A DNA stretch of 63,819 nucleotides, filler included, from an uncultured archaeon (lineage in GTDB: Archaea > Iainarchaeota > Iainarchaeia > Iainarchaeales > 1-14-0-10-31-34), in NCBI GenBank assembly GCA_964442255.1. It is 9 parts of 9 records of this genome, joined end to end, with 100 filler letters (N's around TTAATTAATTAA, not from the genome) between each part and the next. Parts side by side here need not be neighbours in the genome. Positions count along the whole stretch, not along the records: positions 60,197 to 63,819 come from CAYTYC010000047.1; 8 more parts are not named here. The stretch is one strand, 5' to 3'. A program made the translations under genes and the position numbers. Position 1 is the stretch's first letter. Every line of letters starts with the position of its first letter. The notes below the pieces were generated by a model. It had not been told where the DNA came from. It made no database searches and was given only the letters and a program-made list of their open reading frames with translations. Below, one piece after another: positions 7,800-63,819 of the stretch.

Positions 7800-8951
7800 T
7801 TGCCCTCCTTTTTTTTCCCTTTTTCTTTTCTTTATTTTGTTTTCTCGCTTTTCCTTCTTGGGTTGGGAACATACACTGATTTTAAGTGGAGGTTTATTTC
7901 CAACAAACTGACTTACTCAATGATTTTAATCGGCCTGGCTGTTCACTTTGGGGAATCGGTTTTAACCCAAAACTTTTTCACAATAGGAATCGCGGCCGGG
8001 ATTACCGCCGCAACCTTCTTTTTTTCCTGGCTTTTATGGAAGCTTGGGGTTTGGGCAGGCGGGGACGTAAAGCTTTTCACCGCGCTAGCTGCACTGAATC
8101 CGTTTAACCTCGGGGTTTTAAGGGACCTGCTTGGCTTGAAGTTTTCCCTGCTTGCCTCTCTCTCCATCCCGATTTTTCCTTTAACGCTTTTCATTTTCAG
8201 CATTTTTGCAATGGTTCCCTACGGCTCGCTTTTAAGCGTCCACGGGCTGAAAAAAAAGCCGGAGCTAAGGAAAGAACTGTTCAAGGACTTTAAGGCAAAG
8301 CTGGTGAATTCCGTTGAATATTCGATGCTGCTTGTCGGGATTTATGCCCTGCTGGGAAACTTTTCGCTTGATTTTTGGCTTCAGCTGGTTGCCACACTTG
8401 CCGTAATTTTTGCTTACCGACTGGTTAAATTCAGGCTTAAGCTTGCGGTTCCAATTGCCTTGTTTTTTTACAGCCTTTACCTTAATGCAATTTTCTCGGT
8501 TTCTTACGCGGTTTACCTTTTCCTTTTCTTTTTCGCGGTTTACGCTGTTTTAAAGCTGTATTCCGTAAGCAAAAGCGAGGTTTTAAGGGAAGAAATTCCT
8601 GTGGAAAGGCTGGAGGAAGGCATGATTCCCGCGGAATCCCTGTACGAGGTTGAAGGAAAGGTGGTGAAGGCGGAAAAGCTGTCAATAGGAAAAATTATAA
8701 ACAACTTTAGAACTAATAGTCTTGACTCCCTTCAAAAACTGCTTTCCCCTCCGGGAAAGGCAATAGTGGATGCGCGGAAGGCGCGCGGGCTTTTGAAGGA
8801 AGAAATAGATGAATTGCGGAAACTGCAAAGCGAAGGCAAAATAAGGGAAAAAATTTGGGTGAAAAAAACCGCGCCAATGATTCCGGCGGTTTTAATCGCG
8901 TACATTATCTTGAATTTGGTTGGGGATGCGCTGTGGAATTTGCTGTTTTAG
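7800..8951 (+). CDS. prepilin peptidase (A24, EppA-like long form)
   Basis: YTDFKWRFISN and WAGGDVKL catalytic Asp motifs; LEEGMIP and C-terminal PMIPAVLIAY. Confidence 0.88.
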   Translation: MPSFFFPFSFLYFVFSLFLLGLGTYTDFKWRFISNKLTYSMILIGLAVHFGESVLTQNFFTIGIAAGITAATFFFSWLLWKLGVWAGGDVKLFTALAALNPFNLGVLRDLLGLKFSLLASLSIPIFPLTLFIFSIFAMVPYGSLLSVHGLKKKPELRKELFKDFKAKLVNSVEYSMLLVGIYALLGNFSLDFWLQLVATLAVIFAYRLVKFRLKLAVPIALFFYSLYLNAIFSVSYAVYLFLFFFAVYAVLKLYSVSKSEVLREEIPVERLEEGMIPAESLYEVEGKVVKAEKLSIGKIINNFRTNSLDSLQKLLSPPGKAIVDARKARGLLKEEIDELRKLQSEGKIREKIWVKKTAPMIPAVLIAYIILNLVGDALWNLLF

Positions 8952-9508
8952 AAAACTTTTTGGGAAACCTTGCAAAAGATTCTTTTGCGGGGCCTCGCAA
9001 ACCAGTTGGTTTGCAAGGAAGTTTTATCAAAAATAAGGTAAAACAAAAAGGGCAGATGAGCGTTGAGTTCATGCTGTTGATAGTGGTTTTTCTTTTCTAC
9101 ATTCAGGTGATAGTCCAGCCCACCTTGAATGACGCTGAAATGGGTATAGCGGACACAAAGGCGGTGGTGCAGACAAAGTTTGCCGCCCAAAAGCTTGCAA
9201 ACGCGATTGAATACATTGGCGCGTCAAACGGCCTGGCAAGGGAAACAGTCACAATCATTGCGCCGGAGGGCAGCACTATTTTGTGCGGGAACGACTCCCA
9301 GCAGGATTACCTGCAGTACTCTGTTGTTGTGGGCGGGGATTACTCTGAATGCGTTGCAGGGGCATGCACTGAAAACATCAACTTAAGCAAATCAATTGAT
9401 GTAAGGGACGCGGAATGCAGCAATTTCAGCGTGAATGCAGCAGACAGGGCGGTTTCACGGGAAGTTGAGGTAAAGAAAGAAAGTGATGGCAGTGTCACAA
9501 TTTCTTAA
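8855..9508 (+). CDS. pilin-like protein (true start probably downstream of the ORF start)
   Basis: KQKGQMSVEFMLLIVVF class III signal followed by a Cys-containing domain. Confidence 0.75.
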   Translation: MGEKNRANDSGGFNRVHYLEFGWGCAVEFAVLENFLGNLAKDSFAGPRKPVGLQGSFIKNKVKQKGQMSVEFMLLIVVFLFYIQVIVQPTLNDAEMGIADTKAVVQTKFAAQKLANAIEYIGASNGLARETVTIIAPEGSTILCGNDSQQDYLQYSVVVGGDYSECVAGACTENINLSKSIDVRDAECSNFSVNAADRAVSREVEVKKESDGSVTIS

Positions 9509-27615: not shown

Positions 27616-27656
27616 CGAGATCTACACTCTTTCCCTACACGACGCTCTTCCGATCT
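27616..27656 (+). other. Illumina TruSeq adapter contamination
   Basis: CGAGATCTACACTCTTTCCCTACACGACGCTCTTCCGATCT. Confidence 0.98.
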
Positions 27657-28961
27657 GGAAATTTGGTGGTGACAAACCGCTGCGATTTGAGCTGCTGGTA
27701 CTGCTTTTTTTTCGCAAAAGAAGGCGACCCAATTTACGAGCCCTCCCTCGCGCAGATAAGGAAAATGCTGCGAAATTTAAGGAAAGAAAAGCCGATTGCA
27801 AGCAACGCAATCCAGCTGACGGGAGGGGAGCCGACTTTGCGCGAGGATTTAACGGAAATAATACGGGTTGCGAAAGAAGAAGGGTTTGACCACGTGCAAT
27901 TAAATACGGACGGAATAAACCTGGCATTCAAAGAAGGGCTGGTGAAAAAAGTCAGGAAAGCAGGGGTCAACACTTTGTACCTGAGCTTTGACGGAACAAC
28001 CCCAAAAACAAACCCAAAAAACCATTGGGAGGTGCCGTTTGTTTTTGAAAACTGCAGGAAAGCAAATATGGGCGCTGTCCTGGTGCCGACAGTGATAAAA
28101 GGAATCAATGACCACGATTTAGGCAACATACTGAACTTCGGGTTAAACCACCTGGACATTGTCAGGGCGGTCAACTTTCAGCCGGTTTCATTGGTGGGAA
28201 GGATGCCGAGAAAGGAAAGGGAAAAACGCAGGATAACAATTCCCGGAACACTGAAAAAAATAGAGGAACAGACCCGCGGGCTGATTGCAATGGAAGACTT
28301 TTACGTCATCCCCTGCATAACTCCGTTCACGGATTTTGTGGAGGCCTTCACCGGAAAACCGAAATACGATTTGTCCACGCACTTCGCGTGCGGGGCGGCA
28401 ACATACATTTACATGGACGGAAAAACCCCCACGCCAATCACAAGGTTCATTGACTTTGAGGGATTGAGGGAATTCCTTTCAGAAAAAACGCGTGAGCTAA
28501 AGGAAGGAAAGCACAAGGCATGGGTTGGAAGCAAAATGCTGTTCAAAATAGGAAGTTTTTTAGACAAAGAAAAGCAGCCAAAGGGCCTGAATTTGGCGAA
28601 CATTTTATTCAACACAATAGTTAAGCACAACTACAGGGCAATAGGGGAACTGCACCACAAGACGATGTTCGCTGGACTGATGCACTTCCAGGACAAATAC
28701 AATTATGATGTGGAACGCGTGGAAAGATGCGACATACACTATGTGATGCCTGACGGAAGAATAATTCCATTTTGTGCGTTCAACGTAATTCCGGAAATTT
28801 ACAGGGACAAGGTGCAGGCACAGTACAGCATTCCGCAGGAAGAGTGGAGCAAAAAAACAGGGAAAACCCTTTTGGAGGGAAAGTACAGGAGAAAAACAAA
28901 AGAACTTGAGTCCAGCCCAGTTTACGGGAAAATTTATGATACGGTGAATTACTTTGAATGA
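27657..28961 (+). CDS. radical SAM enzyme, tetraether synthase (Tes/GDGT-MAS, MJ0619 family)-like; 5'-truncated
   Basis: TNRCDLSCWYCFF, IYEPS, QLTGGEPT, NFQPVSLVGR, HFACG, MHFQD, RCDIHY, IPFCAFN. Confidence 0.8.
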   Translation, partial: GNLVVTNRCDLSCWYCFFFAKEGDPIYEPSLAQIRKMLRNLRKEKPIASNAIQLTGGEPTLREDLTEIIRVAKEEGFDHVQLNTDGINLAFKEGLVKKVRKAGVNTLYLSFDGTTPKTNPKNHWEVPFVFENCRKANMGAVLVPTVIKGINDHDLGNILNFGLNHLDIVRAVNFQPVSLVGRMPRKEREKRRITIPGTLKKIEEQTRGLIAMEDFYVIPCITPFTDFVEAFTGKPKYDLSTHFACGAATYIYMDGKTPTPITRFIDFEGLREFLSEKTRELKEGKHKAWVGSKMLFKIGSFLDKEKQPKGLNLANILFNTIVKHNYRAIGELHHKTMFAGLMHFQDKYNYDVERVERCDIHYVMPDGRIIPFCAFNVIPEIYRDKVQAQYSIPQEEWSKKTGKTLLEGKYRRKTKELESSPVYGKIYDTVNYFE

Positions 28962-29220
28962 GCCCTTCAGGGAAATACAGAAAAAAGAGTACTCCGTCAG
29001 GGGATTGAAGTCAGAGAACGATGCAGCATTCCTCCAGTACAGGCTGTCGCTTCTTGATTCGGTCATTCGGGCGCATGTCGGCTTTGGGGAAGGAAAAGCC
29101 TTTGTGCTTTTTTCAGGCGAAGAAAAAGAAATCAAAAAAATCCTCGGGGAAAATGCAAAAGAGTTAAAAGGAGTTAAAACACAGTATTCTGATCTGGTGG
29201 AAAAAAGTTTCAGCAAATGA
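28954..29220 (+). CDS. hypothetical protein
   Basis: Operon-like spacing. Confidence 0.5.
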   Translation: MNEPFREIQKKEYSVRGLKSENDAAFLQYRLSLLDSVIRAHVGFGEGKAFVLFSGEEKEIKKILGENAKELKGVKTQYSDLVEKSFSK

Positions 29221-29232
29221 GGTGAAAAAAAA

Positions 29233-29673
29233 GTGGAGGAATCAATCCAGTTTGTGGCGAACTGCAGGGGATGGGTTTCAGTCAGGAAATTAAAGGTGAC
29301 GGAAGCTACTGACCCCCGCACAGTGCTGGAGTTTCTGGCGTCCCTTAACACGGGAATTGACCGCAAGGTGGAGGAGTATTTGGGAAAAATCGTGGATTTG
29401 GCTCCGCTGGATTCCGCATTAACTGATGTTTTGGGCGACTCCGGAAAAACTCCCGGGGAGGCGATAAAAGCGGTGAACAGTTTGCAGGTGAACAAAGCAG
29501 TGAATGAATTGGCTGAAGGGCTGGAGAAGCTGCAGAAAGGGGAAAAAAAAGAGGTCTCCGAGTTTTTGAAGGTTTACGCAATGCGGAAAGCGCTGAAGGA
29601 AAAGAAGATTAGGGTGGATTACTCGGAAATAGCGGTTCCGGGAATGAAAAAAGTGAAGAAAACAAAGGTTTAA
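29233..29673 (+). CDS. archaeal conserved protein (DUF2666-like)
   Basis: IQFVANCRGWVSVRKL...EFLASL; GAGGTGA SD. Confidence 0.6.
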   Translation: MEESIQFVANCRGWVSVRKLKVTEATDPRTVLEFLASLNTGIDRKVEEYLGKIVDLAPLDSALTDVLGDSGKTPGEAIKAVNSLQVNKAVNELAEGLEKLQKGEKKEVSEFLKVYAMRKALKEKKIRVDYSEIAVPGMKKVKKTKV

Positions 29674-29698
29674 ATTTTCCTTAAACTTATTTTTTTGG

Positions 29699-29968
29699 AT
29701 GGCAAAAGAAATATTCAAGGAAAGGGTTGGCCCCGGAAACCTGCGCGTCGGGGTAAAGGCGGGAAAAAAAATTCCCCCAAGACGGGCAATTGAATTCAAC
29801 TTGTACAGCAAATTCCACGGGCACGAGTACGTGATAAGGGGCAAAGAACTGTTTGAATTAAAGGGCGGAAGGCTTTCCATTGTGGAGGACGCGGCAGACG
29901 CGAGAATTGCGTTAACTAACGCTAAATGGAGTCAAAAGTCTTCCCTGGACAAAACCAAAATGAAGTGA
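29699..29968 (+). CDS. hypothetical protein
   Basis: ATG ORF in a co-oriented run. Confidence 0.5.
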   Translation: MAKEIFKERVGPGNLRVGVKAGKKIPPRRAIEFNLYSKFHGHEYVIRGKELFELKGGRLSIVEDAADARIALTNAKWSQKSSLDKTKMK

Positions 29969-29975
29969 AAATTGA

Positions 29976-30836
29976 ATGGCTTCGGAAATTGAACTGGTTC
30001 AATTTTTTCAGGGCTTTTCCAGCCCGGCGCTGGATTATTTGATGATTGCGTTAACCCAATTGGGAAACCCTTTCTTCTGGCTTCTGCTTACGGCCGTGGT
30101 TTACTGGAGCGGAAGGGACAGGGAGGCGTTGGGTTTTGCCAATTTGGTTTTGTTTTCTTCCATGGCTGTTGGAGTTTTAAAGCATTCGTTTGGGAAACTC
30201 CGGCCTCCTCTGGTTTCGGATTCGGTGAGGGCGGTTATTCCAATTGAATTCGGCCCTTTGGCTTTTCCTTCAGGGCATGCAACGCTTGCGGGGGCTTTTT
30301 TCGGGTATTTTTTGAAATACAAGAAACTTTTCTGGAGCCTTGGTTTGGGTGCAGGGGTTTTGGTTGTTGCAGTGAGCAGGGTTTATTTGGGAATGCATTT
30401 TGTTTCCGATGTTTTGGCGGGGGCTGTTTTGGGGTTGGTTATTGGAATGCTGAACATTAAATTGAGTGAACGGATCGCGAAAGCAAAACTGAAGCTGAGC
30501 TTGTGGAAAGAGGAACTGCTGGTTTTCGGGCTGATTGCCGCGAGCATTTTGCTTTTGATTTACTACAGGGAAAGCGCTTTGCCTGCCGCCTTCATCGGGT
30601 TTTACGCGGGTTTTTTCACCTTAAAGGAAGTAGAGTACCCGCATAAGTGCGAGAGAGGAAAAAGCCTTTGGGTTAAGGAAGGGCTTGGCTTGGCGGGAAT
30701 TGGGGCACTGCTTTTGGCTTACTTTTTTTCGGGAAGCTTTTTGCTTGAATTCGCCTTAATGGGCTTGGCCGGATTATGGATTTCCTTCATTTGGCCCCTT
30801 ATTTTTGACCATTCCCTTAAAGGCAACTGCTTTTAA
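29976..30836 (+). CDS. PAP2 family membrane phosphatase
   Basis: KHSFGKLRP, FPSGH, SRVYLGMHFVSD. Confidence 0.9.
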   Translation: MASEIELVQFFQGFSSPALDYLMIALTQLGNPFFWLLLTAVVYWSGRDREALGFANLVLFSSMAVGVLKHSFGKLRPPLVSDSVRAVIPIEFGPLAFPSGHATLAGAFFGYFLKYKKLFWSLGLGAGVLVVAVSRVYLGMHFVSDVLAGAVLGLVIGMLNIKLSERIAKAKLKLSLWKEELLVFGLIAASILLLIYYRESALPAAFIGFYAGFFTLKEVEYPHKCERGKSLWVKEGLGLAGIGALLLAYFFSGSFLLEFALMGLAGLWISFIWPLIFDHSLKGNCF

Positions 30837-30860
30837 ACCTTAAACGCACCAAATATTAAG

Positions 30861-30949
30861 GCTGTCATTTTCCGAGCGAAAGCGAGGAAATAACTACTAC
30901 AAAACGCAGTGAGGTAGTAGGGCACGCATATAAACTGGGCGTGACAGTT
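30861..30949 (+). repeat. REP-like multi-hairpin element upstream of the tRNA-Tyr leader
   Basis: CTGTCA/TGACAG closing stem; GAGCGAAAGCGAG and AACGCAGTGA loops. Confidence 0.55.
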
Positions 30950-31207
30950 TCCCGCCTTAGCATAGCAAACTTTTTCAAAAAAAGTTTGAACAAAAAAAGC
31001 TTTTTAAGAAACCTTGTAAATGCTTTGCGTCGTTAAAAAACCTTTCGGTTTTTTGACGCGTCGGAAACCTGCAGGTTTCCAACGTTACGAGGCCCCGCAA
31101 ACCTTAAAGTTTGCAAGGAAGCTTTAGCAAAAAAGCAAAAACCGGCTAACGCCGAAAACTTTTAGAAAAAGTTTGATCAAAATATGTGCTAAGGCAATGT
31201 ACTGCAA
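30950..31207 (+). other. tRNA-Tyr 5' leader: copy of the tRNA 5' end, hairpin element, antisense copy
   Basis: TCCCGCCTTAGCATAG at 30950-30965 equals 31208-31223; TGTGCTAAGGC at 31185-31195; the core is homologous to the tRNA-Pro intron. Confidence 0.8.
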
Positions 31208-31208
31208 T

Positions 31209-31428
31209 CCCGCCTTAGCATAGTAGCCAATGCGTCCGGCTGTAGTTGTTTCAACCGGTTTTTTTTTGAACCGGTGTGCTTTGCTTCAGGGCAAAGCGGG
31301 CGCATAAACCCGAAAGCGGCGGTGAGCGAGGCGAAAGCCGAGCCAGTGCCATACGCCAGTATGGCACGTTCCACTGCCGGGAACAGCCGGCAACCGGAAG
31401 ATCCCCGGTGCAAATCCGGGAGGCGGGA
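31209..31428 (+). tRNA. tRNA-Tyr(GTA) with a 147-nt intron at 37/38 (31246-31392)
   Basis: Acceptor CCCGCCT/AGGCGGG-A, D stem GCAT/ATGC, anticodon stem TCCGG/CCGGA, loop CTGTAG|A, T arm CCCGG-TGCAAAT-CCGGG. Confidence 0.85.
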
Positions 31429-31480
31429 TTTAGGCTTTTGAACGATAGTTTTATAATAACACTTTGTGTTACGCTATGTT

Positions 31481-31777
31481 ATGGAGTATGTTAGTTTCAA
31501 ATTAGATAAGCCTGTTTTGAAGCAGATAGAGAAGGGGATTAAGGAGTTCCATTACAGCACCAAATCAGACTTTTTAAGAGACGCTGTAAGGACAAAACTG
31601 CAGCAGCTTGAAGAGGACAGGGCCAAAAAGAAGGCCTGGGACGCGCTGTTCGCAGCAAGAGGCGTATTGAAGGGACAGGGAAAGGCAAAAACAGACGAAG
31701 AATTTAGGAAAATTACTGAGAAAGCAGCAGAGGAATACATTGAAAAATTGGAAAAGAAATTTTCTGCTCAAAAGTGA
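31481..31777 (+). CDS. ribbon-helix-helix (CopG-like) putative antitoxin
   Basis: VSFKLDK...YSTKSDFLRDAVR. Confidence 0.8.
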   Translation: MEYVSFKLDKPVLKQIEKGIKEFHYSTKSDFLRDAVRTKLQQLEEDRAKKKAWDALFAARGVLKGQGKAKTDEEFRKITEKAAEEYIEKLEKKFSAQK

Positions 31778-32187
31778 ATGTCTTCAGGCATTGCAATTTT
31801 TACAATATCTGCCAAAGCATCAAAGTGCCTGTCTCTTGTAACCATTACTGCTTTGTTGTCTCTCGCTAACACAGCATGCAGAACATCCTTAAAATGCGTT
31901 TCTTTGACAGAAGAAGAAATTTTTCGTGCCTGAGAAATTTGTTCATCAGAGAGAAAAACCTTAACAAGAATATCCTCAAATGGAGAAAAAAGCCCAGCAA
32001 TTCTTTCATCAGAATAATCAGATTTTAGCTCTTCCACAACCAAATCAGAAAACAAAACCTTACAATTGTTCTTTTGACAATTTTTCAAGAATTGGAAAGC
32101 AAAATCCCCCAAAGGCCTGATACTGTCTCTTCTGTCTTCAAAATAGTCCCGCCAGATTGCAGTATCCAGGTAAAACTTTTGCACCAT
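31768..32187 (-). CDS. PIN-domain (VapC-like) toxin
   Basis: YLDTAIW, VVEEL, DVLHAVLA, VTRDRHF. Confidence 0.87.
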   Translation of the reverse strand: MVQKFYLDTAIWRDYFEDRRDSIRPLGDFAFQFLKNCQKNNCKVLFSDLVVEELKSDYSDERIAGLFSPFEDILVKVFLSDEQISQARKISSSVKETHFKDVLHAVLARDNKAVMVTRDRHFDALADIVKIAMPEDIHF

Positions 32188-32366
32188 AGTAACAACTATT
32201 GCTTAACATTATTTAAAACAAATTAACCAAAACAAGGTAAGCAATGGCTGAAATTGTCGGGAGTTGCACTCACAGATGGAGGTTGGGAGGCGGGAATTTT
32301 TTTTTCAATAAAAAGGAATGCCGGATGGCAGCATATTTATAAATTGTTTACATTAAGATATATTGT

Positions 32367-32903
32367 ATGACAAAGTTGCTTGTTATTAGCGACAGCATTT
32401 CTTTGATTATTGGAACTAAAGCAGGCTTGCTTGATGCAATATGTGAAGAATTCCAAGTTGAAATTCCTGAAAAGGTTTTTGAAGAAACGGTTTTAGCTGG
32501 AAAAGAATTGCAAAAAATTGATGCACTGAAGATTGAGGATGCAATTAAAGAAAATAGGATAGCGGTTAAAAAAACAAAGCCGTTGAAAGAAGGCAAAACA
32601 GCCAATTGGCTCAGCCAACTTAATTTGGATACGGGGAAAATGGAAGCAATAAAGCTCTACATTCAGACAAATGCAAAATTAATGTTAATTGATGACCGGC
32701 AAGCAATAAACGCAGCAAAGTTGCTTGAAATAAACTGGGCAACAATTCCAGACATTATCGTTGAATTTGCGATAAGGAAAAAAATCTCAAGAGAAATTGC
32801 ATTAGAAGCATTAAAAATCGCTCAAAGAGAAGGAAGATACAAAATAGAGTTTGTTCTCAAAGCATTTAATAAAATTGAAAAAATAAAAGGAGGGAAAAAA
32901 TGA
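32367..32903 (+). CDS. PIN-like (DUF3368-type) toxin; lacks the usual GE motif (reads GK)
   Basis: VISDSISLI, IPEKVFEE, LDTGKMEAI, LIDDRQA. Confidence 0.75.
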   Translation: MTKLLVISDSISLIIGTKAGLLDAICEEFQVEIPEKVFEETVLAGKELQKIDALKIEDAIKENRIAVKKTKPLKEGKTANWLSQLNLDTGKMEAIKLYIQTNAKLMLIDDRQAINAAKLLEINWATIPDIIVEFAIRKKISREIALEALKIAQREGRYKIEFVLKAFNKIEKIKGGKK

Positions 32904-33214
32904 AAACAAAACTCGTTTCCGCAAGGTTTGCAAAGAAGGATACTGCATTAATAGAAGAGGTTGCCAGAGAAGAAAAAACAGACAAAACCACGGCGTTAAA
33001 AAGAATATTTGTACTCGGCGCAAAACAATACAAACTAGATAAAGCGATAAAAGATTACCAAGAAGGAAAAATAAGCATAGGGAAAGCAGCAGAAAACGCC
33101 GAAATAAGCTTGTGGGAGATAATGGATGAACTAAAAGAAAGAAACATAGTGAACCCATTAGGCGAAGAAGAATTCAAGGAAGGATTGAAAAACCTTCAAA
33201 AGGTCTGGAAATGA
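32900..33214 (+). CDS. UPF0175 family antitoxin
   Basis: AIKDYQEGKISIGKAAENAEISLWE. Confidence 0.87.
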   Translation: MKTKLVSARFAKKDTALIEEVAREEKTDKTTALKRIFVLGAKQYKLDKAIKDYQEGKISIGKAAENAEISLWEIMDELKERNIVNPLGEEEFKEGLKNLQKVWK

Positions 33215-33503
33215 AAAAAACCACAAACCACTAACCATTCACTACCAACCGCAAATCCAAGCAGCTCCGGGAGGCGGGATGCCCCCGCAAGAAGCGGTTT
33301 CAGGGGCTCCTTGAACTCCGCGGAAAAGGAAAAAACACCACTCACTCCATAAAACAACAGCCCTGAAAAAAAACATGTTTTAGGCACTACAAACCCTGTC
33401 CGGATAGCCTTTAAAATGCCCGGCAAATGTCCGGAAAGGAGGCACGGGCAATTTTTGCAGATGGCGCAAATTCGGTAAACCCCCAAATTCACCCACAAAT
33501 ATT

Positions 33504-33758
33504 TCAACTTTTTCTTTTTGTTAACAGCTTAGGCAAATCATCAGCGGTTAAACCACAATCCCTTAGAATGCCTTTAAGCGTTCCAACTGGCAGCATTTTC
33601 TTGGTGTGGCAGGGAATGGTAGTGTACCTCAGCTCTCCCTTATAAACGCCTTTCAGCTGAATGTGTGAACCCTTTTGCCTTACAGGAATTATGCCGATTT
33701 TAGACAAGACTTTAACTAATTCTTTTGCCTTGATAGCAGGCAATTTCCTTTCCACCAT
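33504..33758 (-). CDS. hicA: HicA family toxin
   Basis: LPAIKAKELVKVL...RQKGSH...IPCH...GTLKGILRD. Confidence 0.9.
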   Translation of the reverse strand: MVERKLPAIKAKELVKVLSKIGIIPVRQKGSHIQLKGVYKGELRYTTIPCHTKKMLPVGTLKGILRDCGLTADDLPKLLTKRKS

Positions 33759-33767
33759 AAAAATAAG

Positions 33768-34028
33768 CTACAAGGCCTCAACTTGGATTTGACTTTTACT
33801 TTCTGCGGAATCAGTGGGAAGATCAACTACCAAAGTTAATATGCCCGAAACTGCCTGTTTAATCTTTTGTTCCCCCTCCACATTCAGCAAATAAGCTTCC
33901 TGAAAGTTTCTTAAAGCTTCTTTAAATGTTTTTCCGTAAGTGTTAATATGGTAGTCGTCATTCCTTATCAGGACATGTTTTCCTTCTTTCCAGACCTTAA
34001 TCTTTACTATCTGCGGGACCATAGACAT
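33768..34028 (-). CDS. HicB-like antitoxin
   Basis: TYGKTFKEALRNFQEA; adjacent to hicA. Confidence 0.75.
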   Translation of the reverse strand: MSMVPQIVKIKVWKEGKHVLIRNDDYHINTYGKTFKEALRNFQEAYLLNVEGEQKIKQAVSGILTLVVDLPTDSAESKSQIQVEAL

Positions 34029-34367
34029 TCACCCAAACACTAGCCTGCTTTTCCCATCTACTGAAAATTTAATGGAATTTCCAACCTGATACTTGTCTTT
34101 TACAGCCTTCCATTCATCTTCCGAAAAATAAATAATCGCCTTAAATTCCTCAGGCTCCACAGGCGGCACTCCCGGCACAATAGGAACCGACAAATTTTTT
34201 GGGCTTTTTGATAATTTAACCGGATGTTTAAAAGTCAAGTCAACACGAACAGCTGAACTGCCGTCCGGGCGAGTCGCCCTAATGACATTCTTAACGGCTA
34301 CAAGGTCAGCCGAACCCACTTTTTCACCTAAGAATTGTATGCCCAAAACAGTTTTAAAATCATGCAT
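34029..34367 (-). CDS. hypothetical protein (OB-fold/arcadin-1-like appearance)
   Basis: Co-oriented with hicBA; IYFSEDEW...YQVG. Confidence 0.5.
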   Translation of the reverse strand: MHDFKTVLGIQFLGEKVGSADLVAVKNVIRATRPDGSSAVRVDLTFKHPVKLSKSPKNLSVPIVPGVPPVEPEEFKAIIYFSEDEWKAVKDKYQVGNSIKFSVDGKSRLVFG

Positions 34368-34420
34368 TATTTACAAAAAGCCCCCAATGCCCCTGAAGAA
34401 GAGAAAAAATATCGCTCACT

Positions 34421-34475
34421 CCTTGAACTACGGTGGGCTGAAGCCCACCGAGTCTTTACTTGAACTGTAGCAAGG
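34421..34475. mobile_element. IS200/IS605-end-like hairpin element, at contig end
   Basis: Identical to 20188-20242. Confidence 0.6.
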
Positions 34476-60196: not shown

Positions 60197-60540
60197 GAGC
60201 AAAGCGAAGGAGGTGGCATCTCAGTGCCGGCGGACGAAACCGCCAAACGCGGGCGAAGCGAGCAAATCTGCCTCAAGCGAAAGCGAGAGGCAGCCTCCCG
60301 GCACTCCCACCCGAAAGCATGGCACACTCCACTCCCGCGAGCAGGCGGGATTCCGCTGCCGGGAACAGCCGGCATACCGGACCTGCCCTATGGAATGGGC
60401 AAATGCAAACGCGTAGCGTGAGCAACAACCATGCGCTAGCATGGCTCCCTGCACTGCCGGCAGAAGCCGGCAACCGCGAGCGAAGCGAGCAACAACCATG
60501 CGCTAGCATGGCTCCCTGCACTGCCGGCAGAAGCCGGCAA
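60197..60540. repeat. GC-rich hairpin-module array abutting the tRNA-Pro 3' end
   Basis: 54-bp direct repeat at 60420-60473 and 60487-60540; GCGAAGC, CCATGCGCTAGCATGG and TGCCGGCAGAAGCCGGCA modules. Confidence 0.85.
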
Positions 60541-60541
60541 A

Positions 60542-60803
60542 TGGGGCCCCGGGGATTTGAACCCCGGTCTACACCACGTTGGAACGCTTTTTTCTTTTCC
60601 CACGGCTTTTCGCCGAAGGCGAGTTTTTTGATAAAACTTTTCCTTGCAAACCCAAAGGTTTGCGAGGCTCCGCAACGTTGGAAACCTGCGGGTTTCCGAC
60701 GCGTCGAAAAACCGAAGGTTTTTCAACGAAGCTTTGCTTTTACAAGGTTTCCAAAAAGTTTTTCCCCAAGGTGCAATGCTAGTCCAGGCTACACCAAGGC
60801 CCC
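60542..60803 (-). tRNA. tRNA-Pro(GGG) with a 187-nt BHB intron (60577-60763)
   Basis: GGGGCCT/GGGCCCC-A acceptor, GCACC/GGTGT anticodon stem, loop TTGGGG|T, BHB helix TTGG/CCAA with 3-nt bulges. Confidence 0.9.
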
Positions 60804-60838
60804 TTGAATAAAACTGGAAAAGAAATGTTTTAATATAC

Positions 60839-63505
60839 ATGAACTTAGTATTAATTATGATGGGGGCAGATAACTTGCTTGGAAGCCTGTTTACCGCGCT
60901 TTTGTTTTTAACTGGCCTGCCTTTTACTGGCACCGGGATAGACTTGGAAAACCTCGCCGTAAGCGACTACAATGTGAGCACCAATTCCCCTTCCCTGAAT
61001 GAAGGCGACTGGCTTGAGCCGGAGAAAGCTTATGGAAAAGGAGGAGGGCAGTCTTTTGCCTTGGATTCAGGGGTTTCCCATGAATTCAGCGGCTTTGGCT
61101 TTGACATTCCCGCAAAATCAACAATTAACGGAATTGAGGTGCTGGATGACAGCTGGGTTGAAGGAACAATTTTTTCCCCTAAACTCAAGGTCTTTCTTTC
61201 AGGGGACGGGGGGAACAGCTGGACAAACCCAAAATCGCATGCACTCACTGATTCAGAACAAACGCATTCCTTAGGCGGGCCGGAAGACAGCTGGGGAGTA
61301 GACTGGCTGAGCGGGGAAATAAACAGCGACGATTTCAGGGTAAAAATTGAGTCAGCTTCAGGGCTTATGATTGCGGGAAGCAGTTTCAGGGAAGACTGGG
61401 TAAGGGTTAAAGTGCATTACACTGAACCTGTTGACTCGTATGCGCCTGACCTGAACTTGAAGAGCCCAAAAAACAAGAAATACGGTTTTGATGAAGGGAT
61501 TCCCTTAAGCTACGAGGTTTCTGATGATGTTGCTTTATCCAGGTGCTGGTACAATCTGGACGGCGACGAAAATATTACGATAAAAAATTGCGAAAACACT
61601 TTTTTTGACGCCAACAAAGGAATTCACTCCCTTAACTTGTTTGCAGAGGACACTTCAGGAAAGGTAAGCACTGAATCAGTTAAGTTTTTGGTTTCTTTGA
61701 AGCCAAGCCAGCCGGTGCTTGTGCTTTACGACAGCTCAATGCCTTCAAACCATTACGACCACTACCTGGCGGAAATACTGAAAACAGAGGGTTTAATGGC
61801 TTTCCAGAAGGCAGACCTTTCAGATTACCGGAAAGGCTTTTTTCCTTTAAACGGGTTTGATTTAGTGATTCTGCTGGAAACAACTGGGTTGAACGTAAGA
61901 GAGGTAATGGATCTCAAAATGTTTGTGAGAAGAGGCGGAAGCCTGATTGGAGTCAATCCAGACAAGAGGCTTGCAAAAGTATTCGGGGTTAAGCCGCTTA
62001 ACTCAAGCCAAAACGGCGGATACATTAAAGTTAACGGAAGCACGGAAATTGGGCACGGAGTTGAGGAAACTCCTATTCAATTCCATTCTGAAGCAGAACT
62101 GTACGAACTGGAGGGAGCTGAAGCGGCTGCATGGCTGTACTCTGACAGAAACAATGCAACAAACTTCCCTGCAATAACACAATACAGTTACGGAAAAGGC
62201 CGCAGTGTTTTATTCGCTTACCCTCTTGTGAAGTCGGTTGTTCTCCTGCACCAAGGGGATGACAGCATGCAAGACATGACTGACACGGACGGGGACGGAA
62301 AATACAGGCCGCAAGATTATTTTGCGAACGGCTTCTATGACGCAAGCAATGCAAGCATTCCGCAGGCAGACGAGCACCAGTCTGCACTGGTTAATTCCGT
62401 TTATTATTTGATGTCAGAAAAGAAGCCTCTTCCAAGGGCCTGGTATTTTCCGGACTACAGCAAAGTAATTTGCCTTATTTCAAGTGACTCCGGCGGAGAC
62501 GACGGCGGAAGGGACATTGAAGTGGAATACCATTCAAACAAGGTGGAGTCATACGGCGGCTGCGCGCATTACAATATTTTGGATTTGGATTTAAGTGTCC
62601 GCGAACACCGCGCCCTCACTGAAAACTGCCACAGCGTTTCGCCTCATGCATATGTAAGCGATACCCCGACACTGGAGGAAATGGAGGGAGGCGTAAGAAG
62701 GGATGTAAGGGACTTCAAAGAAAAGTTTGGGGACCTTGGGAAAGTGCAGGTAACCCACAGCAACATATTTGTGGGTTACTGGGAAACCGCAAAATATTTT
62801 GCTGACAACGGCATTAGGATGAGCGCACAAAACGGCGCCCCAATACATGAAGCCCCTTACCATGGCTACCTGTTTGGCACGGCCCTGCCCTTTAAAATAA
62901 TAAAAAACGAGGACGGCAATCCCGTGATAAACGCGTTTCAGCAGCCTTTGGTTTTCTCGGACATGGTGATGATAGAATACGGCGGATACAATGAAGCGGA
63001 AGCAAAACAAATAACGAAAAACATTTTGGACAACCTGAAAAACTCTTACTACGGGACTGCGAGGTTTAATTTCCATGCTTACGGCCTTTACATTGACAAT
63101 GGCGGATTTGAAAGAGACTGGTTTGATTACACGCTGGATTACTGCAGCCGGAATTCCATGCCTTTATGGTCCTCGGACCACTTTTACAACTACTGGACTG
63201 ACCGCCTTATAACAGAATTTGAAAACATCAGGTTCAACGGGGAACTGTTAAGCTTCCGGGTTTGGGCTGCGCCAAACAATTCAACTATCCTGGTTCCAGG
63301 TAAATTTAATGGATTGGAAGTAAAGTCGGTTGAGGTTGACGGATCGGAAGTTTCCCATTCAAGTTTTCCAGCGGACGGAACAGAGTACACGGGATTCACT
63401 GTCAGCGGCCCAGACCACCGGGTTAAAGTCTTATACGCTGAAATAAAACAGGAAGAGCCGCCAAAGCCAGGCAAAAAAACCGTTCCAAAACTTGTTTCGG
63501 TTTAG
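60839..63505 (+). CDS. large secreted multidomain protein (Ig-like, GATase-like and polysaccharide-deacetylase-like regions)
   Basis: N-terminal hydrophobic segment; YLAEILKTEG, IPQADEHQ, PLPRAWYFP, FNFH. Confidence 0.65.
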   Translation: MNLVLIMMGADNLLGSLFTALLFLTGLPFTGTGIDLENLAVSDYNVSTNSPSLNEGDWLEPEKAYGKGGGQSFALDSGVSHEFSGFGFDIPAKSTINGIEVLDDSWVEGTIFSPKLKVFLSGDGGNSWTNPKSHALTDSEQTHSLGGPEDSWGVDWLSGEINSDDFRVKIESASGLMIAGSSFREDWVRVKVHYTEPVDSYAPDLNLKSPKNKKYGFDEGIPLSYEVSDDVALSRCWYNLDGDENITIKNCENTFFDANKGIHSLNLFAEDTSGKVSTESVKFLVSLKPSQPVLVLYDSSMPSNHYDHYLAEILKTEGLMAFQKADLSDYRKGFFPLNGFDLVILLETTGLNVREVMDLKMFVRRGGSLIGVNPDKRLAKVFGVKPLNSSQNGGYIKVNGSTEIGHGVEETPIQFHSEAELYELEGAEAAAWLYSDRNNATNFPAITQYSYGKGRSVLFAYPLVKSVVLLHQGDDSMQDMTDTDGDGKYRPQDYFANGFYDASNASIPQADEHQSALVNSVYYLMSEKKPLPRAWYFPDYSKVICLISSDSGGDDGGRDIEVEYHSNKVESYGGCAHYNILDLDLSVREHRALTENCHSVSPHAYVSDTPTLEEMEGGVRRDVRDFKEKFGDLGKVQVTHSNIFVGYWETAKYFADNGIRMSAQNGAPIHEAPYHGYLFGTALPFKIIKNEDGNPVINAFQQPLVFSDMVMIEYGGYNEAEAKQITKNILDNLKNSYYGTARFNFHAYGLYIDNGGFERDWFDYTLDYCSRNSMPLWSSDHFYNYWTDRLITEFENIRFNGELLSFRVWAAPNNSTILVPGKFNGLEVKSVEVDGSEVSHSSFPADGTEYTGFTVSGPDHRVKVLYAEIKQEEPPKPGKKTVPKLVSV

Positions 63506-63673
63506 CGGTAAACGCAATGTAGAATTTTTTACATGCAAAACGACTGCGCGGCAGGAATGGGTTGAAGAATTTGCCTTTGGTGAAATCATCAAATGCAAGT
63601 TTCCTATTCTTATTTTCCTATGCGCATAATCCATCCCAAGAAAAGCAAGGACTGAATTGGCGTGGCTTGTTCT

Positions 63674-63819
63674 TGCCTGGCGAAACCGGCAAATGCGAGC
63701 AAACCTGCCTCCGGAGCAAAGCGAAGGAGGTGGCATCTCAGTGCCGGCGGACGAAACCGCCAAACGCGAGCGAAGCGAGCAACAACCATGCGCTAGCATG
63801 GCTCCCTGCACTGCCGGCA
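63674..63819. repeat. GC-rich hairpin-module array, same family and orientation as 60197-60540
   Basis: 63714-63768 is identical to 60197-60251, followed by the repeat unit of ~60475-60529. Confidence 0.88.

Follow-up and report, generated by a model that had tools for sequence, protein, structure and literature searches.

A dispersed hairpin repeat makes up most of a tRNA-Pro(GGG) intron in an uncultured Iainarchaeota genome

We analysed a 63.8-kb stretch of DNA (the window) in which nine contigs of a metagenome-assembled genome (MAG) of an uncultured archaeon of the Iainarchaeota, a DPANN lineage, are strung together with runs of N between them; the MAG itself (G000) amounts to 1.28 Mb in 51 contigs and is 93.8% complete. 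The subject of this report is a tRNA-Pro(GGG) gene on contig C47 (window 60197-63819; 3.6 kb) that carries a 187-nt intron at the canonical position 37/38. Most of this intron is a copy of a repeat of ~145-160 nt, built of nested hairpins, that is dispersed through the same genome. We consider it likely that the gene is a working one and that its bulge-helix-bulge (BHB) intron was filled, most likely by enlargement of an older short intron, by one copy of this repeat.

The tRNA-Pro(GGG) gene and its intron

With default ARAGORN and with Rfam at gathering score, only a tRNA-Gln was reported in the window and the tRNA-Pro(GGG) gene was missed; ARAGORN with introns allowed located it, with the following parts.

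60542..60803, minus strand (60803-60542; C47 c[346,607]): tRNA-Pro(GGG) gene (ARAGORN with introns allowed)
60764..60803, minus strand: 5' exon, 40 nt, tRNA positions 1-37, with anticodon GGG and G37 (ARAGORN with introns allowed)
60577..60763, minus strand: intron, 187 nt, canonical 37/38 (ARAGORN; junctions bridged by contigs of DNA runs)
60542..60576, minus strand: 3' exon, 35 nt, from U38 to discriminator A73, CCA not encoded (ARAGORN and sequence)
60766..60769, minus strand: 5' strand of the BHB central helix, UUGG (tRNA positions 32-35), followed by the 5' bulge and splice site GG|A (sequence and constrained folds)
60579..60582, minus strand: 3' strand of the BHB central helix, CCAA (intron nt 182-185), followed by the 3' bulge and splice site CG|U (sequence and constrained folds)
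60577..60605, minus strand: intron-specific 3' tail outside the repeat, source of the CCAA in the BHB and of the 3' strand of inner helix h'

A sequence-only reading of this stretch had proposed a 187-nt tRNA-Pro intron at 60577..60763; ARAGORN with introns allowed returned exactly these limits, and the BHB claimed with it, UUGG/CCAA with bulges GG|A and CG|U, was read directly from the sequence. The predicted junctions (tGGGG-Intron-TGGTG) leave a mature anticodon loop UUGGGGU in a regular cloverleaf. The outer helix h of the BHB, which is the 5-bp anticodon stem GCACC/GGUGU, is present; the four central pairs (UUGG/CCAA) are all Watson-Crick, and the bulges, GGA and CGU, are of 3 nt each. 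Four Watson-Crick central pairs at a position fixed by the exons are expected by chance in ~0.4% of cases, an estimate taken as (1/4)^4. When cloverleaf and BHB were imposed as constraints, the transcript was predicted to fold at -97.4 kcal/mol, and at -97.0 kcal/mol when the inner helix was forced as well; imposing the motif thus carried no large energetic penalty.

The genome encodes an EndA with one catalytic domain (PF01974, 96.7 bits) in a single 171-aa frame in the C19:20859-21119 region, together with RtcB (528.8 bits). The size of EndA (171 aa) fits the alpha4 type, which, in the available text of PMC5829648, is reported for several DPANN lineages. From the intact BHB, the intact exons and the presence of EndA and RtcB genes, we infer that the intron is probably spliced. 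The codons CCC and CCU make up 49% of proline codons (523 long open reading frames), and ARAGORN with introns allowed and a pattern search turned up just one tRNA-Pro(GGG) gene in the MAG; it is probably needed. Both exon-intron junctions are bridged, with 0 differences, by Logan contigs from the DNA runs X1 and X2; no join skipping the intron, as expected of an intronless allele, was seen in the contigs of these runs, which drop rare variants.

A GC-rich hairpin cassette of two tandem units stands flush with the 3' end of this gene in antisense orientation (window 60413-60540). The cassette recurs flush with tRNA-Arg, Pro(UGG), Trp, Gly and Ile genes (C9:29938-30063, C1:106656-106707, C24:7828-7904, C28:12579-12690 and C12:38336-38388).

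Copies, fold and nested build of the repeat

Copies of the repeat superfamily located in the window include two in the long form and one in the short form.

60606..60763, minus strand: long-form copy in the tRNA-Pro(GGG) intron, intron nt 1 to ~158 (BLAST; nhmmer, 1.8e-41; covariance model, 149 bits)
30993..31143, plus strand: long-form copy upstream of a tRNA read as tRNA-Tyr, on contig C38 (window 27616-34475; BLAST, nhmmer; covariance model, 170.9 bits)
8949..9043, plus strand: short-form copy, without the P2-P3 hairpins (covariance model)

The claim that about 140 nt of the intron align, in the same orientation, with the region upstream of tRNA-Tyr was borne out: BLAST gave a 140-nt match of the intron to C38:3380-3519 (window 30995-31134; 84% identity, E = 2.1e-35), in the same sense as the adjoining tRNA. 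Against shuffled controls, a comparison that had been named as a possible refutation, the Smith-Waterman score was 164, compared with 24.1 +/- 3.4 (maximum 41) for 1000 dinucleotide shuffles (z ~41). The homology in fact runs further, to nt ~157-158. That with the copy in the rRNA spacer (contig C17) spans intron nt 2-157, and the small GCCUUCGGC hairpin at intron nt 143-153 is also the 3' end of short forms in G023, a complete genome (99% completeness) from another family of the same order; the GCCTTCGGC hairpin of the intron is likewise common to short forms. The C17 homology and the shared GCCUUCGGC hairpin assign ~158 of the 187 intron nt to the element, about 85%, and leave the last 29 nt specific to the intron.

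That the intron copies a dispersed element also held, as nhmmer recovered 10 full copies from the genome, one more truncated where contig C22 ends, along with partial modules. Of these 11 copies, five lie in stable-RNA units: the Pro intron, the 16S-tRNA-Ala spacer, the tRNA-Phe trailer, where the copy starts directly after the discriminator base, and the regions upstream of tRNA-Tyr (71 nt before it) and tRNA-Ser (81 nt before it). The other six lie between protein genes, whose Pfam matches include Endonuc_Holl, topoisomerase, NIF3, TFIIB, NurA and subtilase. Regions inside or within 300 nt of a tRNA hold 5/11 copies and account for 9.8% of what was estimated to be non-coding DNA (binomial p = 0.0025). 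All five stable-RNA copies are in sense orientation, as is the one copy between two co-oriented genes; the remaining copies stand in divergent or unresolved contexts, which are uninformative on orientation. The copies at tRNA-Phe, at tRNA-Tyr and in the rRNA spacer share 97-99% identity, and the intron copy is 82-84% identical to that subfamily, which argues that it is not the newest. Among the 11 long-form copies the Pro copy is alone in an ARAGORN-called intron; other introns carry other repeat modules. Rfam 15 gave no match on the element, either at gathering score in the window or at E <= 1 in the 11 copy-holding loci, and neither a RUGAUGA nor a CUGA box was read in the Pro intron.

The copies share a fold in which P1 encloses P2 and P3, with P4 next to it. 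In the intron copy its main parts lie as follows.

60754..60762, minus strand: 5' arm of P0, AAAACUUUU, intron nt 2-10, pairing with nt 123-131 (window 60633-60641; constrained fold)
60703..60727, minus strand: P2 hairpin at intron nt 37-61, in which one U.G pair never varies (two-sided changes at pairs 45:66 and 53:58)
60675..60702, minus strand: P3 hairpin at intron nt 62-89, which hardly varies; its closing pair is G.U, and a C.A mismatch is conserved
60642..60667, minus strand: P4 hairpin at intron nt 97-122 (UA, AU and CG all found at pair 107:129)

Pairing is kept in 96.9% of cells, and six pairs have changed on both sides. The covariation score is 0.152, compared with 0.086 for shuffles, and was reached by 0/500 of them. 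Variation is concentrated outside the stems, as the sequence-only reading had noted in finding stems kept and loops different: 20 of 72 paired columns are variable, against 29 of 39 unpaired ones (Fisher p = 3e-6). G.U cells (33) outnumber A.C cells (6), which favours the sense strand acting as RNA. P0 joins the ends of the element, as AAAACUUUU/AAAAGUUUU in the intron and as AAAGCUU/AAGCUUU in other copies, a compensatory difference.

A covariance model built from 10 copies detected short forms of ~95 nt that lack P2-P3: four in G000, 15 loci in G023, and a few in G033, G022, G011 and G003. Among the 15 loci of G023, one adjoins a tRNA and none lies in an ARAGORN-called intron. When the 31-nt invariant core of the long form was used as query, the genome contig collection gave one match, the P2-P3 module alone (L067) in another Candidatus Iainarchaeum MAG, and the metagenome contigs scanned gave 0 stretches. 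The long form was found in G000 only, and relatives carry rearranged short forms. Since short forms lack P2-P3 and P2-P3 also occurs alone, the element is nested: the P1 loop houses P2-P3, and the P0 loop houses the core.

In the 16S-tRNA-Ala spacer (L003; C17:3155-3790), tandem 'empty' P0 units (AAGAAAGCTTTTTGGAAAAAAGCTTTAGCAAAAAGGAGGCTTACGCC) without the core, broken by an N run, are followed by the full long form. Five short forms of G023 (L099, L101, L103, L104 and L105) have almost the same flanks (left, gacgggttcatg.cgtccattaaatg...; right, taggca.gggagg.cgtcat), which suggests that these copies are nested inside yet another element.

The same gene in relatives and competing explanations for the intron

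Eight genomes of the same family (G001-G008) and five of other families served for comparison. A stricter tRNA-Pro pattern run over 151 genomes matched G000 only and was replaced by a looser one, which found the gene in six of the eight same-family genomes; G001 and G008 gave no match and were left out. The tRNA-Pro(GGG) gene (ARAGORN label) is intronless in G003, G004 and G007, as it is in 5/5 genomes of other families examined. The remaining three have introns at 37/38 of ~21 nt (G006; our own reading, ARAGORN mislabels the gene), 58 nt (G005) and 79 nt (G002), all unrelated in sequence to the 187-nt intron. A comparison of intron length across relatives, proposed with the sequence-only reading, sets 0, ~21, 58 and 79 nt against 187 nt. 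Because the gene in relatives is either intronless or has a shorter, unrelated intron, the repeat came in secondarily. In G005 and G002 an A/T hairpin directly follows the splice site, as in the 187-nt intron (read from the sequence), and this common opening favours growth of an older short intron over birth de novo. The intron would then be an expansion of an older short one, a reading that is favoured although the data do not decide between the two. It had been asserted that the locus gives direct evidence that a repeat can form or expand a spliceable tRNA intron. The repeat content (~85%) and the secondary arrival stand, whereas 'direct' and 'spliceable' exceed the data, and forming and expanding are not distinguishable here, expansion being the likelier.

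Three ARAGORN calls of 'Pro(ggg)' introns, in G004, G005 and G006, were set aside as non-orthologous, their loop and BHB reading as tRNA-Pro(UGG); three tRNA-Pro(UGG) genes are thus mislabelled GGG by ARAGORN. The tRNA-Pro(UGG) gene has a canonical intron of 78-126 nt in G004-G007 (L032, L033, L035 and L038) and of 83 nt in G000 (C1:106501-106660), and the introns of G004 and G006 begin with an A/T hairpin directly after the splice site. Several ARAGORN-called tRNA-Pro(GGG) genes of relatives (L062, L063, L066, L065, L040 and L043) have the anticodon loop UCGGGGA, and thereby C33; U at tRNA position 33 is almost universal. At L065 (G006:C13) an exact 21-nt copy of the 3' end of tRNA-Pro(GGG) (GTTCAAATCTCGGCGGCCCCA) lies downstream of the gene, beyond ~165 nt of GC-rich hairpins.

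In the explanation that we favour, the repeat would fold as a self-contained RNA domain, its ends joined by the closing A/U stem P0, with P1 (enclosing P2 and P3) and then P4 inside it. Because its ends pair, such an element may be tolerated at the tip of an intron, in a leader, trailer or rRNA spacer, or in an untranslated region. The BHB around it, with its UUGG/CCAA helix and both 3-nt bulges, would stay intact together with the anticodon stem, so that EndA could cut at GG|A and CG|U and RtcB could join the exons. The element would have entered a hairpin loop of an existing intron as DNA, through insertion or gene conversion, and is probably selfish or neutral rather than functional.

Several observations weigh against this explanation. 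The inner helix h' is weak (two A-U pairs, a 2x2 internal loop, then six pairs), and the BHB is slightly relaxed by this interruption. The unconstrained minimum free energy fold, at -103.8 kcal/mol, lacks the BHB and is 6.4-6.8 kcal/mol better than the constrained ones. The intron contains U5 runs, which can act as archaeal terminators, and no RNA runs were listed in the search for the contig C47 locus. The covariation lies mostly between two subfamilies and therefore amounts to few independent events; P1 of the intron copy has one mismatch and three G.U pairs, so this copy may be decaying. No target duplication flanks the Pro intron copy, and no autonomous coding partner sharing the ends of the element was found, Y1_Tnp being the only transposase family searched. 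The relatives compared belong to the same family or stand farther off, none to the same genus, so the insertion lacks an empty-site allele. Finally, the introns that ARAGORN called in the rest of the genome are unverified, some of them being wrong (Stop and Pyl labels). With that limit, they count in favour of the explanation: 15 of the 17 ARAGORN-predicted introns of at least 40 nt contain sequence repeated elsewhere in the genome, a genome-wide pattern of which the Pro intron is the clearest instance.

A birth de novo, in which the element inserted into the anticodon loop of an intronless tRNA-Pro(GGG) and the BHB arose by chance and later mutations, is unlikely in our estimate. The gene is indeed intronless in three of the six same-family relatives and in all five more distant ones, homology to the element sets in at intron nt 1-2, directly at the 5' splice site, and only ~29 nt of the intron are not element. 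However, the CCAA and the 3' strand of h' lie in just that non-element tail and were therefore not brought by the element; had no BHB been ready at insertion, the one tRNA-Pro(GGG) gene found would have been inactivated; and three same-family relatives have short introns at the same site, opening with an A/T hairpin. The opposite direction, in which the family began as this or another tRNA intron and spread outward, for example via excised intron RNA, is very unlikely. The element is not in the tRNA-Pro(GGG) genes of relatives, and the short forms of G023 are intergenic, with the scant association with tRNAs and introns given above. Excised BHB introns are circularised and can be stable, which counts for this direction, and the intron copy, as the most divergent of its subfamily (82-84%), could be old.

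A reading compatible with our account of the origin of the intron treats the element as a functional small RNA, released as a circle from the intron by EndA/RtcB and in linear form from leaders and trailers by RNase P and tRNase Z. It would explain the compensatory changes and sense-strand G.U pairs in a conserved structure, the sense orientation in every informative context, the enrichment near tRNAs, and the copies that stand flush with a discriminator base (Phe) or a 5' splice site (intron). We nevertheless regard it as distinctly doubtful. For six of the 11 copies, which lie between protein genes, no processing site is apparent. BHB-like motifs do not exceed random loci in frequency (7.2 against 6.05 per locus); a permissive scan around the nine non-intron copies gave 72 hits over all 10 loci, with no signal relative to random controls. 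The absence of an Rfam family match and of RUGAUGA/CUGA boxes in the intron also speaks against a functional RNA, and a long form confined to one genome, with rearranged short forms in relatives, fits a fast-evolving selfish repeat better. Hardly credible is a pseudogene disrupted by the repeat, or an artefact of assembly at a repeat junction. Grounds for suspecting one are that the element is repeated, that the MAG is fragmented at repeats, with A/T hairpins at many contig ends, and that C47 is only 3.6 kb long. Yet the element is flanked by the two halves of one tRNA in the right order and strand, each junction is crossed by contigs from two DNA runs without a single difference, and the canonical site holds a BHB whose 4-bp helix is perfect and whose two bulges are of 3 nt. 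The cloverleaf, too, is intact, and no other tRNA-Pro(GGG) gene was found.

tRNA ends, mobilisation and relation to known systems

The tRNA next to the C38 copy has its own 5' end duplicated across the repeat.

31209..31429, plus strand: tRNA read as Tyr(GUA), intron ~147 nt (ARAGORN label Asp(GTC), intron inside the anticodon)
30950..30965, plus strand: duplicate of the tRNA-Tyr 5' end, 16 nt (TCCCGCCTTAGCATAG); the other member of the pair is at 31208-31223

The upstream copy had been named a Tyr leader and is a putative one. The reading as Tyr is supported by C1-G72/A73, which we take to be the tRNA-Tyr identity rule, by a BHB central helix with 3/4 pairs, and by the lack of any other Tyr call in the genome; the ARAGORN label is Asp(GTC). 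Read as Tyr(GUA), the tRNA has G37 and A38. The TCCCGCCTTAGCATAG twins bracket a 242-nt insert that contains the repeat. The tRNA-Tyr intron contains a U9 run and, by eye and with no alignment, a hairpin pair resembling the GC-rich cassette (window ~31320-31393).

Among the marks of a miniature inverted-repeat transposable element, a fixed-length target-site duplication at every copy was not seen: direct repeats (16 nt) flank 2/10 copies, Phe and Tyr, and in both they derive from an end of the tRNA itself, the inserts between them measuring 245 and 242 nt. The ends of the element form the palindromic A/T stem P0, which may be read as terminal inverted repeats or as an RNA stem.

Exact 15-21-nt copies of a tRNA's own end occur in the flank, 54-320 nt away, for 6 of 42 ARAGORN tRNAs, compared with 0 of 168 control comparisons (G000 C5:25754, C12:16052, C17:23360, C17:24816 and C31:71; window 30950-31223). 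Five are 3'-end copies, all of which start in the T loop, directly after an A/T hairpin (GAAACTTTTT..AAAAGTTTC); the single copy of a 5' end (Tyr) breaks off in the D loop, after which comes an A/T hairpin. A/T hairpins similar to P0 are abundant in G000 (99 regex matches), many of them at contig ends. A hairpin of ~21 nt (AAACTTTTT-NNN-AAAAAGTTT) forms arrays at many contig ends (e.g. C5, C7, C16, C17, C19, C23, C24, C27, C35, C36 and C49), and from this position it seems to fragment the assembly; some of its copies abut mature tRNA 5' ends, at C24:4912-4932 before tRNA-Val (4933) and at C12:23021-23041 before tRNA-Val (23044).

The genome has two IS200/IS605-type Y1 transposase genes (C9:47097-47594, minus strand, and C21:4219-4587). 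Of the two, the C9 gene is divergent (49.5 bits) and has GC-rich hairpins of its own on its flanks, with a long-form copy ~900 nt away. Mobilisation of the Y1/RAYT type was considered and rejected: the Y1 genes of G000 fall below the REP_Tyr_transpos cut-off, and G023, with 15 repeat loci, gave 0 Y1_Tnp matches.

We also raise a conjecture, which we consider unlikely to be correct, that a family of hairpin modules inserts, one inside another, into existing hairpin loops, the anticodon, D and T loops of tRNAs included. P2-P3 sits in the P1 loop, the core sits in the P0 loop, and the tRNA-end copies start in the T loop or stop in the D loop, which such insertion may have produced.

Bacterial REP (repetitive extragenic palindromic), BIME (bacterial interspersed mosaic element) and REPIN sequences are short, mosaic, hairpin-forming intergenic repeats that are co-transcribed with their neighbours and vary sharply in copy number between close lineages. 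The repeat described here is likewise short, hairpin-forming, mosaic and intergenic. REPINs, however, are tied to the RAYT (Y1) transposase, whereas the 15 loci of G023 go with no Y1_Tnp match, and to our knowledge REPs are not found inside spliced tRNA introns. C/D box sRNAs ride in the tRNA-Trp intron of Euryarchaeota, and tRNA-linked ones reportedly occur in Nanoarchaeum equitans. With these the element shares the placement of a structured RNA in discarded parts of tRNA transcripts, shifting between intron, leader and trailer; unlike them it has no C/D boxes and no Rfam match, and many of its copies are not linked to tRNAs.

Transposition of tRNA introns in Thermoproteales (Fujishima et al. 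2010, Mol Biol Evol 27:2233, as described in the available text of PMC4033280 and PMC4090602) is ascribed there to a mechanism called unknown. As far as those accounts go, the likeness lies in near-identical sequences in BHB introns through recent spread within a genome, and in lineage-specific intron gain. In Thermoproteales, related introns occur in other tRNA genes; here similar introns in at least two tRNA genes of the genome were not found, as one long-form copy lies in an intron and the others in leaders and trailers, the rRNA spacer and intergenic DNA, and the element, unlike those introns as there described, has a conserved multi-hairpin fold. In Caldiarchaeum subterraneum an integrating element disrupts a tRNA gene, with a 1.8-kb insert that encodes a recombinase (Sugahara et al. 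2012, PMC3293823, available text). As there, putatively mobile DNA here goes with intron gain and tRNA fragments, and tRNA ends bracket the inserts at Tyr and Phe; in contrast to the case so described, our inserts are of 54-320 nt and consist of non-coding hairpin repeats with no enzyme. A census of Asgard tRNAs (2026, 10.64898/2026.10.13.758758) tested copying between tRNAs, mobile elements and reverse transcription, and its available text gives no general route; the route by which archaeal tRNA introns arrive is called unknown there and in the corresponding text of PMC4090602.

Our literature searches returned no description of an archaeal tRNA intron copied from a dispersed intergenic repeat. 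What is new relative to known intron transposition is that the relatives of this intron are not introns. Default tRNA finders miss such genes, so that too few tRNAs have probably been called in DPANN MAGs. Canonical BHB structure is compatible with a structured insert of ~160 nt when the ends of the insert pair, which offers a simple rule of tolerance. Insertion into loops, if true, would provide one mechanism for the filling or birth of BHB introns, the nested repeat and the 15-21-nt tRNA-end duplications, and an observable route for the arrival of archaeal tRNA introns. The locus provides a concrete source for the sequence of an archaeal tRNA intron, in that the donor repeat family can be named and its non-intron copies counted, and, with intronless and short-intron versions of the same gene among relatives, it makes the question of origin testable within one lineage.

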